A stretch of 64,000 nucleotides of DNA, from assembly GCF_003334385.1 (NCBI RefSeq), contig NZ_QOWN01000002.1; one strand, written 5' to 3'. A program made the position numbers and the translations under genes. Below are positions 2,557-22,937 of the stretch, piece by piece; position 1 is the stretch's first letter; every line of letters starts with the position of its first letter. Source of the DNA: Escherichia coli. Lineage in GTDB: Bacteria; Pseudomonadota; Gammaproteobacteria; Enterobacterales; Enterobacteriaceae. The notes under the pieces are model-generated. The model had not been told where the DNA came from. It did no database searches and saw only the letters and a program-made list of their open reading frames with translations.

Positions 2557-3921
2557 TCAGCCGCAGACCACTTTAATGGCCAGTCCTCCGCGTGATGTTT
2601 CGCGGTATTTATCGTTCATATCTTTGCCGGTTTCATACATCGTCTCGATCACTTTATCGAGTGAAACACGCGGTGCCGAGGTGCGGCGCATCGCCATCCG
2701 CGCGGCGTTTACTGCTTTCACGGCATTAATGGCATTACGTTCAATGCACGGGATTTGTACCTGTCCGGCAACCGGATCGCAGGTCAGCCCAAGGTTATGC
2801 TCCATCGCGATTTCCGCCGCATTGCATACCTGCGCCGGACTGCCGCCCAGTAGTTCAGTTAACCCTGCCGCCGCCATTGAACAGGCCACGCCAATCTCCC
2901 CCTGACAGCCGACTTCCGCGCCAGAGATGGAGGCGTTCATTTTATACAGCGCGCCAATAGCCCCCGCGGCCAGAAAATAGCGGGCAATTGACCGCTCGTT
3001 TACCGGACGACGGAACTTATCGTAATAAGCCAGTACTGCCGGAATAATGCCGCACGCACCGTTAGTCGGTGCCGTTACCACGCGCCCGCCAGCTGCGTTT
3101 TCTTCACTAACCGCCAGCGCGTACATGTTGATCCAGTCGATGACATTCATCGGATCGTTAGAGATGTTATCGCTGGAAACCAGCTGACGACGCAGCGCTA
3201 CGGCACGGCGCGGCACATTGAGCGGACCAGGCAGCACGCCTTCAGTGTTCATCCCACGTTCAATACCGTCATGCATCACTTGCCAGATACGGGCAAAACC
3301 GGCGTCAATTTCCGCTTTGCTGCGCAGCGCTAGCTCGTTGTGCATCATCAGACCAGATATAGACAGGCCGTTGTAATCACACATTTTCAGCAGTTCACCT
3401 GCTGAGTGGAAATCGTAAGGTACGGACGTTTCGACATCGTGCGACAGGCCGAAGTGTTCTTCTTCGACAATAAACCCGCCGCCGACAGAGTAATAGGTTT
3501 TACTTAATAGCTCTTCCTGTCCCTTCCAGGCAGTGATCCGCATTCCGTTCTCATGGCGAGGCAACATTTCGGGATGGAAGATAATGTTCTTTGCTACAGG
3601 AAAATCAACAATATGCGCACCAGATGCCACTGGCAGCCGCCCGCTGCGCGTTACTAACTCTATAAATGCAGGGATCTCATCAATGACAACATCCTGCGGA
3701 CTGTTTCCTGCCAGTCCCATGATGATGGCGACATCCGTGGCATGGCCTTTGCCCGTCAGTGACAACGACCCGTACAGATCGACCACAATATGGCTCGTCG
3801 CGGTTAATAAGCCGCTACTTTCCAGCCGATCAATAAAACTTTTTCCGGCATTCATTGGCCCCACGGTATGCGAACTGGAGGGACCAATCCCAATTTTGAA
3901 AATATCGAATGCACTAATCAT
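2557..3921 (-). CDS. tdcG: L-serine dehydratase TdcG, 454 aa
   Basis: Track ORF 2557..3927; start set at the second in-frame ATG to give [23 protein letters not shown], the Fe-S L-serine dehydratase N-terminus. Confidence 0.9.
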
Positions 3922-19553: not shown

Positions 19554-21125
19554 ATGGCCAACATCGAAATCAGACAAGAAACGCCAACTGCGTTTTATAT
19601 AAAAGTTCACGACACAGATAATGTGGCAATTATTGTTAATGATAATGGCCTGAAAGCAGGAACGCGTTTTCCGGATGGGCTGGAATTAATTGAACATATT
19701 CCCCAGGGGCATAAAGTCGCATTGCTGGACATTCCGGCTAATGGTGAAATTATTCGTTATGGCGAAGTGATTGGTTACGCCGTGCGTGCAATCCCACGCG
19801 GAAGCTGGATCGACGAATCAATGGTTGTACTACCGGAAGCGCCGCCGTTACACACGCTGCCACTGGCAACCAAAGTCCCGGAACCCTTACCGCCGCTGGA
19901 AGGATACACCTTTGAGGGCTATCGCAATGCCGATGGCAGCGTGGGCACCAAAAACCTGCTCGGTATCACCACCAGCGTCCACTGTGTGGCAGGCGTGGTG
20001 GACTATGTAGTAAAAATCATTGAACGCGATCTGCTACCGAAATACCCGAACGTCGATGGCGTGGTGGGGCTGAATCATTTGTACGGTTGTGGCGTGGCGA
20101 TTAACGCACCGGCGGCAGTTGTACCTATCCGTACCATTCACAATATTTCGCTGAATCCTAACTTTGGCGGCGAAGTAATGGTGATTGGCCTGGGTTGTGA
20201 AAAGTTGCAGCCTGAGCGCCTGCTGACTGGAACGGATGATGTGCAAGCTATTCCAGTAGAAAGCGCCAGCATTGTCAGTTTGCAGGATGAAAAGCATGTC
20301 GGTTTTCAGTCCATGGTCGAGGATATTTTGCAGATCGCCGAACGCCATCTACAAAAACTGAATCAACGGCAGCGAGAAACCTGCCCGGCTTCAGAACTGG
20401 TCGTTGGTATGCAGTGCGGTGGCAGCGATGCGTTTTCTGGTGTAACGGCAAACCCGGCGGTTGGCTATGCGTCTGATCTACTGGTGCGCTGCGGCGCAAC
20501 GGTGATGTTTTCAGAAGTAACGGAAGTGCGTGACGCGATCCATCTGCTGACACCACGCGCAGTGAACGAAGAGGTCGGCAAACGGCTGCTGGAGGAGATG
20601 GAGTGGTACGATAACTATCTCAATATGGGAAAAACCGACCGCAGCGCCAACCCTTCGCCGGGCAACAAGAAAGGCGGTCTGGCAAACGTGGTAGAGAAGG
20701 CACTCGGCTCCATTGCTAAATCGGGTAAAAGCGCAATTGTTGAAGTGCTGTCGCCCGGTCAACGCCCGACTAAACGCGGATTAATTTACGCCGCGACGCC
20801 AGCCAGCGATTTTGTCTGTGGCACGCAACAGGTGGCTTCGGGTATCACAGTGCAAGTGTTTACGACCGGTCGTGGTACGCCGTACGGCCTGATGGCGGTA
20901 CCCGTCATTAAAATGGCAACCCGCACCGAGCTGGCGAACCGCTGGTTTGATTTAATGGATATTAATGCGGGCACCATCGCTACCGGCGAAGAAACTATTG
21001 AAGAGGTGGGCTGGAAGTTGTTCCACTTTATTCTCGACGTCGCCAGCGGGAAGAAGAAAACCTTCTCGGATCAATGGGGGCTGCATAACCAGCTGGCGGT
21101 GTTTAACCCGGCACCGGTGACCTGA
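19554..21125 (+). CDS. garD: Galactarate dehydratase GarD, 523 aa
   Basis: Track ORF; divergent from garP across a ~370-bp AT-rich control region. Confidence 0.93.
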
Positions 21126-21147
21126 TTTCTTTTGGAACGTCCCTCGC

Positions 21148-21178
21148 AAAACATGGCCTTAGTGCCATGTTTTTATTG
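21148..21178 (+). terminator. Rho-independent terminator downstream of garD
   Basis: Hairpin acatggc-cttagt-gccatgt followed by ttttatt. Coordinates approximate. Confidence 0.6.
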
Positions 21179-21201
21179 TTTAAAGCCCCCACGTCCATTA
21201 A

Positions 21202-21217
21202 TAATGCATTTGCATTA
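21202..21217. promoter_or_regulatory. Palindromic operator in the prlF-yhaV promoter (candidate PrlF/YhaV autoregulatory site)
   Basis: Perfect inverted repeat taatgca-tt-tgcatta about 15 bp upstream of a ttataat -10-like hexamer and ~55 bp upstream of prlF. Confidence 0.5.
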
Positions 21218-21273
21218 CCTTAGTTCAAGCTTATAATTTGAGCAGAAAACAGGCTGTAAAAGGACAGTGAATC

Positions 21274-21609
21274 ATGCCCGCTAATGCTCGCTCTCACGCT
21301 GTACTGACCACTGAATCAAAGGTCACGATACGCGGACAAACAACTATCCCCGCGCCAGTGCGTGAGGCCTTAAAACTGAAGCCAGGCCAGGACAGCATTC
21401 ATTACGAAATTCTGCCTGGTGGGCAAGTATTTATGTGCCGACTGGGAGATGAACAGGAGGATCATACTATGAATGCATTTTTGCGTTTTCTGGATGCAGA
21501 TATCCAGAACAACCCGCAAAAAACTCGTCCATTCAACATTCAACAAGGAAAGAAACTTGTCGCTGGCATGGACGTCAACATTGATGATGAGATTGGCGAC
21601 GACGAATAA
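21274..21609 (+). CDS. prlF: Antitoxin PrlF (SohA), AbrB/SpoVT-type DNA-binding, 111 aa
   Basis: Track ORF; acidic C-terminal tail; stop overlaps the yhaV start (TAATG). Confidence 0.9.
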   Translation: MPANARSHAVLTTESKVTIRGQTTIPAPVREALKLKPGQDSIHYEILPGGQVFMCRLGDEQEDHTMNAFLRFLDADIQNNPQKTRPFNIQQGKKLVAGMDVNIDDEIGDDE

Positions 21610-22073
21610 TGGATTTTCCACAAAGGGTTAATGGTTGGGCGCTATATGCTCATCCCTGTTTTCAGGAAACCTACGACGCTTTAGTTGCCGAAGTCGAGAC
21701 ATTAAAGGGAAAAGATCCTGAAAATTATCAGAGAAAAGCCGCCACAAAGTTATTGGCGGTAGTCCATAAAGTGATTGAGGAGCATATCACGGTCAATCCA
21801 TCATCACCGGCATTCCGTCATGGCAAGTCGTTAGGCTCTGGGAAAAATAAAGACTGGTCACGGGTAAAATTTGGTGCTGGTCGTTATCGTCTCTTCTTTC
21901 GTTATAGTGAAAAAGAGAAAGTCATCATTCTGGGATGGATGAACGATGAAAACACTCTGCGCACCTACGGTAAAAAAACAGATGCCTATACCGTATTCAG
22001 CAAAATGTTAAAAAGAGGACATCCTCCTGCCGACTGGGAAACCCTCACCCGAGAAACAGAAGAAACCCATTGA
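21609..22073 (+). CDS. yhaV: Toxin YhaV (ribosome-dependent mRNA endoribonuclease), 154 aa
   Basis: Track ORF translationally coupled to prlF; matches YhaV. Confidence 0.9.
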   Translation: MDFPQRVNGWALYAHPCFQETYDALVAEVETLKGKDPENYQRKAATKLLAVVHKVIEEHITVNPSSPAFRHGKSLGSGKNKDWSRVKFGAGRYRLFFRYSEKEKVIILGWMNDENTLRTYGKKTDAYTVFSKMLKRGHPPADWETLTRETEETH

Positions 22074-22127
22074 TGGTGTTCACAATGCCCGCCGAACGCA
22101 TTCGTGTTGACCAGCGGGCATCCTTTC

Positions 22128-22937
22128 TCACTCCCCGACCAGAATCACTTCAACCCCAGCCTTTCGCAGTCCTTCCAGGCTATCCGCAGGAATGCCTTCA
22201 TCAACAATGATCATGTCGATACGTTGAGTATCAATGATCTTATGTAAACTGGAACGATTGAACTTACTGGAATCGGTGACCACGATGATCCGTTCCGCAA
22301 CTTCGCACATCCGACGGTTTAAACGAGCTTCATCTTCATTATGTGTGCTGACGCCGCGCTCCAGATCGATCGCATCTACACCAAGAAACAGCATATCGAA
22401 GTGGTAATTTTGCAGCGATTGCTCAGCCTGATCGCCGTAAAAAGATTGCGACTGACGGCGCAAATGCCCGCCGGTCATCAGCAGCTCAACGCCTTCCGCT
22501 TCCAGCAACGCATTAGCCACGTTCATACCGTTGGTCATCGCAATTACGTCAGTGTGCTTGCGCATCAGACGAGCAATCTCAAAAGTGGTGGTCCCGGAAT
22601 CGAGGATAACCCGATGACCTGGCTGAATCAACTCAACGGCAGCTTTCGCAACGCTGCGTTTCATCGCGGTGTTCAGTGCGCTTTTATCTTCCACTGATGG
22701 CTCGACTGACGGCGTCGTGCTATCGCAGATCAACGCGCCACCATAGGCACGCACAGCGATCCCCTGCTTTTCCAGAAACGCCAGATCGTTGCGGATCGTC
22801 ACAGTAGATACGCCATACAATGCCGACAGATCGTTAACCTGCACACTCCCTTGCTGTCGCAGACGCTGAATGATCTGTTCTCGTCGCTCGCTGGTGCCAG
22901 TCACTCGCTTCTCACCTGAAGCGTCGGTATTACTCAT
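22128..22937 (-). CDS. agaR: DeoR-family repressor AgaR of the aga/kba regulon, 269 aa
   Basis: Track ORF; N-terminal helix-turn-helix and C-terminal sugar-phosphate binding domain, divergent from kbaZ. Confidence 0.92.

Follow-up and report, generated by a model that had tools for sequence, protein, structure and literature searches.

The question raised by positions 21202-22073 of a 64,000-nucleotide (nt) stretch of Escherichia coli DNA (RefSeq assembly GCF_003334385.1, contig NZ_QOWN01000002.1) is what kind of two-gene unit lies there and how its expression is governed. (The whole stretch is called the window below, and coordinates given with no locus label are those of the window.) The first base of this region is the first base of a short inverted repeat, and its last base is the end of the yhaV stop codon. 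An earlier note, made from the sequence, had proposed a prlF-yhaV toxin-antitoxin module with a palindromic operator. The answer, which we hold with high confidence, is that the region is the already characterised chromosomal prlF(sohA)-yhaV type II toxin-antitoxin operon of E. coli, in which PrlF and YhaV repress their own synthesis at the dyad.

The system is a known one, and its recovery from the window is the re-identification of a textbook E. coli operon. Positions 21100-22130 are 100% identical to several E. coli chromosomes annotated, in order, garD, prlF, yhaV and agaR, and the locus is matched in 5168 of the 5426 complete E. coli genomes. The module has no detectable difference from the prlF(sohA)-yhaV operon of E. 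coli K-12 (Schmidt et al. 2007, J Mol Biol 372:894), with which it shares locus, proteins, promoter palindrome and gene overlap. The re-identified operon itself adds very little, and the experiments that the earlier note proposed have been reported as done (binding in PMC7781912; toxicity and rescue in PMC8546651). What the analysis adds is a sharper proposed operator consensus, the overlap of the operator with the predicted -35 hexamer, and an operator that appears to travel with PrlF rather than with YhaV.

The palindrome and its promoter

The inverted repeat TAATGCA-tt-TGCATTA (21202-21217), the proposed site of PrlF-YhaV binding, is present as the earlier note described it and is perfect: its two arms (21202-21208 and 21211-21217) are each 7 nt long, 100% complementary and separated by 2 nt. 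The best sigma-70-like site of the region, on the plus strand, comprises a predicted -35 hexamer TTTGCA (21209-21214), a spacer of 17 base pairs (bp) and a predicted -10 hexamer TATAAT (21232-21237), matching at 10 of 12 positions. The geometry originally put forward, in which the palindrome sits next to the -10 hexamer (ttataat, 21231-21237), is therefore to be refined. The -10 hexamer stands, but it starts 14 bp past the palindrome, and the repeat does more than adjoin it: its right half contains, and so overlaps, the predicted -35 hexamer. To judge by the position of this promoter, transcription would start near 21243-21245.

The exact palindrome occurs once in the window, and no further operator copies were found there, looser matches (three or fewer mismatches) being at chance level. 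The two TGCA cores of the repeat are 6 bp apart, and either a single PrlF dimer or a pair of dimers could recognise them. Other candidate elements were considered and set aside. A minus-strand promoter-like site (21260-21233) and another inside prlF (21581-21610) each match at 9 of 12 positions, which is within chance expectation, and a copy of TAATGC inside prlF (21282-21287), a conceivable extra half-site, is not conserved in Enterobacter, Cedecea or Photorhabdus.

Conservation of the operator motif

Homologues of prlF were collected from species-representative genomes, from contigs with diverged PrlF and from plasmids, and the motif was called as TAATGCA-NN-TGCATTA with at most two mismatches, with chance occurrence taken from shuffled sequences. 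On this definition the motif is present in all 10 non-redundant upstream regions of prlF homologues, against an expectation of 0.02. It is identical 5' of prlF in Escherichia and Pseudocitrobacter, reads TGATGCA-at-TGCATTA in Enterobacter, and in Cedecea is part of a perfect 20-bp palindrome, GGTAATGCAATTGCATTACC. It is also found at the prlF genes of Photorhabdus species, whose PrlF is ~45% identical (P. noenieputensis and P. caribbeanensis have the most degenerate left arm), at the prlF locus of a Salmonella contig on which the module lies beside an ANT-domain gene, at three metagenome or read-assembly contigs, and on three plasmids, of Phaeobacter, Pantoea and E. fergusonii. Across Enterobacteriaceae-type loci the gap between the palindrome and a -10-like hexamer is held at 14-15 bp.

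E. coli has one copy of the motif, and several other loci have tandem pairs. The two copies are 17 bp apart on the Pantoea plasmid (L033, ~1060-1095), 18 bp apart on the E. fergusonii IncI plasmid (L031, ~905-940), where they lie ~190-205 nt 5' of the annotated start codon, and 22 bp apart at the metagenome loci L023 and L024. The plasmid of the alphaproteobacterium Phaeobacter, whose PrlF is 41% identical, presents a different arrangement: the motif precedes prlF as elsewhere, and the dyad is placed just downstream of a separate TTGACA, which argues for an operator rather than a -35 element alone.

The Vibrio phage O395 provides the converse case. Its YhaV-like toxin (45% identity over 92% of YhaV) is accompanied by an unrelated 64-residue antitoxin (the two genes are ORF14b and ORF14a, L034 1226-1909), and the PrlF motif is absent upstream. 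Because the motif is missing where the antitoxin is not PrlF and present with PrlF elsewhere, it tracks PrlF; as far as sequence comparison can tell, the operator motif travels with PrlF and not with YhaV, from Enterobacteriaceae to alphaproteobacterial plasmids. (O395 is a P2-like Vibrio cholerae phage fragment, and the arrangement in which a 64-residue non-PrlF protein precedes the toxin looks like antitoxin swapping.)

The aligned sites suggest a sharper operator consensus, (G)GTAATGCA-WW-TGCATTAC(C). A full-text literature search for the operator sequence ATGCATTTGCAT returned unrelated papers only. If modules on chromosomes and plasmids of different proteobacterial classes use one operator code, TAATGCA-NN-TGCATTA, those residing in the same cell would be able to repress one another.

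The two genes and their products

Both genes are on the plus strand. The first, prlF (sohA; 21274-21609), is preceded by a Shine-Dalgarno-like AAGGA (21260-21264) 9 nt 5' of its ATG and encodes the 111-residue antitoxin and proposed DNA-binding autorepressor, an assignment shared by the RefSeq annotation of identical DNA. The second, yhaV (21609-22073), encodes a 154-residue ribonuclease toxin of the RelE superfamily. The prlF stop codon TAA (21607-21609) and the yhaV ATG (21609-21611) have one base in common, forming the TAATG overlap (21607-21611) that had been read as translational coupling; the overlap is there, and translation of yhaV is probably coupled to that of prlF through it. Escherichia, Pseudocitrobacter and Cedecea all have a one-base overlap, either TAATG or TGATG, as do the called genes of L021, L025 and L026; in Photorhabdus, L023 and Pantoea a short gap separates the two genes instead. 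Two small co-oriented genes with a one-base overlap, an acidic antitoxin (calculated isoelectric point 5.1) and a basic toxin (9.25) make up the architecture of a type II toxin-antitoxin system.

PrlF matches the Pfam family PrlF_antitoxin (PF15937) with E=7.2e-42 over residues 14-110, and the NCBIfam equivalog NF007429 with 170 bits over residues 1-111. The latter match is full length and above the curated cut-off of 125 bits, so that membership of the family is secure. Seven of the 12 C-terminal residues of PrlF are aspartate or glutamate and none is basic.

YhaV matches Pfam Toxin_YhaV (PF11663) with E=8.9e-54 (residues 12-150 against model positions 1-137 of 138), that is, over the full length of the profile; no NCBIfam hidden Markov model matches it. 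Sequence searches of the PDB with YhaV did not detect its RelE-superfamily relatives, which emerge on comparison of structures. An AlphaFold2 model built from ten orthologues has a predicted local distance difference test (pLDDT) score of 86 and a predicted template modelling score of 0.82, and Foldseek matches it in the PDB to PfiT (E=1e-4), Mycobacterium tuberculosis RelE1 and RelE2, HigB and E. coli RelE, with probabilities of ~1.0 (the target-normalised template modelling score against RelE1 and RelE2 is 0.77-0.81). The modelled fold of YhaV is RelE-type, the fold of the RelE/ParE superfamily, in which helices pack on an antiparallel beta-sheet. YhaV is a ribosome-dependent endoribonuclease (PMC7781912) that cuts mRNA in phase with codons and whose toxicity can be rescued (PMC8546651); growth arrest by E. 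coli YhaV and its neutralisation by PrlF are reported (Schmidt 2007, as cited in PMC7781912). The earlier identification of yhaV is confirmed.

Among known systems, two other E. coli modules come close to prlF-yhaV. Like mazEF, it has the antitoxin gene first, an antitoxin whose N-terminus is credited in the literature with a domain of AbrB/MazE type that binds DNA, an antitoxin2-toxin4 heterohexamer and self-repression at palindromic promoter DNA (PMC7781912). On the other hand, MazF is a ribosome-independent RNase with the CcdB/MazF fold, in contrast with the RelE fold of YhaV, and profile comparison of PrlF with MazE (an approximate query) gave no significant match. With relBE it has in common the RelE-superfamily toxin fold, codon-phased and ribosome-dependent cutting of mRNA, and an autorepressed operon with the antitoxin gene first. 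RelB, however, is a ribbon-helix-helix antitoxin whereas PrlF is assigned an AbrB-like fold, and YhaV, at 154 residues, is larger than RelE (~95 residues), its model showing additional helices at each end.

Probable autorepression and the alternatives

The palindrome had been called a likely autorepression site, and that reading is supported from three sides. The dyad lies over the predicted -35 hexamer and has been kept alongside PrlF at all the loci examined. A PrlF-YhaV heterohexamer, PrlF2-YhaV4, is reported to bind palindromic promoter DNA (Schmidt et al. 2007, as summarised in PMC7781912), so that the binding itself is taken from the literature. Expression of the operon is controlled by PrlF (PMC5408214) and is increased in strains in which a 7-bp duplication shifts the prlF reading frame (PMC7686311), which is the outcome that loss of autorepression predicts. 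(The Reg-Seq preprint, PMC12133099, has prlF and yhaV among its promoters and gives no result for them in its main text.)

The proposed sequence of events is as follows. Transcription from the sigma-70 promoter (TTTGCA, 17 bp, TATAAT) would yield a bicistronic mRNA from which PrlF is translated first and YhaV, whose start codon begins with the final base of the stop codon of prlF, probably by coupling. YhaV, as a basic RNase of RelE fold, would cut mRNA on the ribosome and stop growth, and the C-terminal region of PrlF with its acidic tail would neutralise it. The N-terminal AbrB/MazE-like domain of PrlF would bind the 16-bp dyad, and the bound PrlF-YhaV complex would keep RNA polymerase off, because the dyad overlaps the -35 hexamer; the operon would in this way repress itself. 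If PrlF were lost, through proteolysis or through a frameshift that takes away its C-terminus, YhaV would be freed and the operon de-repressed. We infer the occlusion of the -35 hexamer, and likewise which residues contact which bases.

A number of observations weigh against this account. The binding is known through a review, and the DNA tested by Schmidt et al. is only presumably the exact repeat at 21202-21217. The start site near 21244 is a prediction. Perfect repeats with arms of at least 7 nt are held by 4-15% of dinucleotide-preserving shuffles of the intergenic sequence, so that the dyad taken alone is within chance. Since the right arm also serves as the predicted -35 hexamer, the dyad may in part have been conserved as promoter sequence. 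The DNA-binding fold of PrlF is also faintly marked in its sequence. The AbrB profile PF04014 gives a weak match (E=0.0023, residues 16-39), TIGR01439 scores 27.1 bits, under its cut-off of 28.3, and the top three PDB profile matches of PrlF are all AbrB-family regulators with E values of only 0.4-0.6. The AlphaFold2 monomer model of PrlF, with a pLDDT of 54, is too poor for a fold search (a shallow alignment of nine sequences and the modelling of a single chain may be the cause). Sequence searches of the PDB found no solved structure of PrlF or YhaV, with nothing significant for either, and no structure of their complex with DNA. Comparison by hhalign of the PrlF alignment with MazE (an approximate MazE sequence) gave a spurious match of 16 residues and nothing significant. 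The AbrB-like fold of the PrlF N-terminus is weakly supported and is drawn mainly from the literature (Coles 2005 and Schmidt 2007, as cited in PMC7781912). The earlier description of a small AbrB-fold antitoxin with an acidic tail therefore holds for size and tail, and for the fold depends on published assignment.

Could the palindrome be conserved merely as a -35 element, or as the target of a different regulator of the host? The predicted -35 hexamer does fall on the right arm (TTTGCA or TTGCAT), its spacing from the -10 hexamer is conserved and the account of PrlF-YhaV binding is second-hand. However, a -35 element does not need the left arm, which is equally conserved and keeps the dyad symmetry, to the point of a perfect 20-bp palindrome in Cedecea; the dyad of Phaeobacter lies downstream of a separate TTGACA and is not a -35 element there; and several loci carry two tandem copies of the motif. 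PrlF and the motif, moreover, occur together in different host classes and on plasmids, the motif is lacking where YhaV is paired with another antitoxin, and the review (PMC7781912) reports that the complex binds palindromic DNA of the promoter. This explanation is accordingly given little credence. That the repeat forms a hairpin in RNA or DNA, as a terminator or attenuator, or is a palindrome of no function that arose by chance, has in its favour the frequency of comparable perfect repeats in shuffled sequence; but a 2-nt loop and AT-rich 7-bp arms allow no stable hairpin, the actual terminator of garD is further upstream (21148-21173), the repeat is located 5' of the predicted transcription start, no Rfam family is found in the region, and chance is excluded by the occurrence of the motif at all 10 loci, where 0.02 would be expected. 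We regard a hairpin or a functionless repeat as extremely improbable.

The operator may be genuine and the module nonetheless an inactive remnant in this genome, with a toxin or antitoxin that does not work. Such remnants exist among relatives: yhaV is frameshifted beside an intact prlF in Enterobacter sp. BIGb0383 and three Photorhabdus species, and deletion and frameshift alleles occur in E. coli and Shigella. In the window, on the other hand, both open reading frames are full length and identical to the common E. coli allele, the heptamer tract described below has its wild-type two copies, and promoter, operator and Shine-Dalgarno sequences are intact, all of which makes inactivity very unlikely. 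Self-repression of an intact prlF-yhaV operon by PrlF-YhaV at the dyad is the reading retained in what follows.

A heptanucleotide repeat in prlF

Two tandem copies of the heptanucleotide CATTCAA (21530-21543, plus strand) mark the place where the prlF1-type duplication of 7 bp, and natural expansions in copy number, arise. Duplication of these 7 bp recurs in laboratory evolution (PMC7686311; PMC5441876; PMC12107188). (The gain of one copy is the classical prlF1 allele, linked to activation of Lon and to beta-lactam heteroresistance.) Natural alleles among public proteins have 5, 7, 8, 9, 10, 11, 13, 16, 17, 19 or 25 copies of the heptamer; these expanded alleles take up all three reading frames and come mostly from Shigella sonnei, with some from E. 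coli. Sixteen perfect copies were confirmed in DNA (L027 1457-1570). In the out-of-frame alleles the acidic C-terminal end of PrlF is replaced.

It is conceivable, though we think it rather unlikely, that the CATTCAA tract is a natural contingency repeat, its copy number changed by slippage, and not a mere mutational hot spot. On this view the out-of-frame alleles, by analogy with the laboratory 7-bp duplication, would relieve repression of the operon, increase Lon activity and confer heteroresistance to beta-lactams, and populations of E. coli and Shigella would have in the prlF locus a heritable switch of stress tolerance that can be reversed. Should its natural variation prove adaptive, the repeat could have a bearing on antibiotic heteroresistance and on the typing of strains; literature searches found no paper tying prlF to typing by variable-number tandem repeats or by multiple-locus analysis of such repeats (VNTR/MLVA).

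Some of the S. sonnei PrlF fragments with expanded tracts (P0084-P0087 and P0091) have a replaced N-terminus, MLKKRTNGSVRYCQYTS..., and are named 'deoxyribonuclease HsdR' in the source records. The name looks like a propagated misannotation, and to judge by the substituted N-terminus, prlF seems to be disrupted in that S. sonnei lineage.

Deletion, decay and mobility of the module

The coding region of prlF-yhaV is flanked by an 8-nt direct repeat, ATGCCCGC (21274-21281 and 22085-22092), which in some Escherichia lineages is 11 nt long, ACAATGCCCGC. Three of the 5426 complete E. coli genomes, including that of EC42405, have a precise deletion between these repeats (L001 2985-3135). The deletion alleles keep the operator palindrome, and their -10 hexamer is degraded (TTCTAAT). 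An arrangement of garD, a prlF remnant and rsmI (L009) was considered as the reason why 258 E. coli genomes are without the locus, and was rejected, since its junction occurs in none of the complete E. coli genomes.

Decay elsewhere has taken another form. The yhaV gene is a frameshifted pseudogene next to an intact prlF in Enterobacter sp. BIGb0383 (L006 2836-3287), and is likewise frameshifted, with prlF intact, in Photorhabdus bodei, P. noenieputensis and P. caribbeanensis (L010, L016 and L017, ~2820-3440). These are cases of toxin-first decay of the module.

YhaV-family toxins are carried on 328 plasmids, 175 of them predicted to be conjugative, and the family is thus widely mobile; many of the plasmids come from Rhodobacterales (Pseudosulfitobacter, Phaeobacter and Sulfitobacter), Pantoea and Escherichia. 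In a Salmonella enterica assembly (L021 and L022, 352-2297) a prlF-yhaV homologue, its PrlF 61% identical, lies directly 3' of a gene with an ANT (antirepressor) domain. The neighbourhood differs from that in E. coli, where the module sits between garD and agaR, and points to a prophage or some other mobile setting.

The flanks of the operon

The surroundings in the window are those originally given, two clusters of sugar-acid and amino-sugar genes: garD and the garPLRK cluster lie 5', and the convergent agaR with the aga cluster lies 3'. The upstream boundary of the prlF control region is the intrinsic terminator hairpin of garD (21148-21173, plus strand), found by inverted-repeat and terminator scans, with a perfect 10-bp stem, a 6-nt loop and a T-run. 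No Rfam family matches the prlF-yhaV region.

The convergent gap between yhaV and agaR is 54 nt long and holds a candidate terminator hairpin, ATGCCCGC...GCGGGCAT (22085-22121, plus strand), with a calculated RNA folding energy of -21.2 kcal/mol (z = -2.5). The hairpin, whose U tract is weak, may terminate transcription from both sides, and its left arm is a copy of the first 8 nt of prlF.

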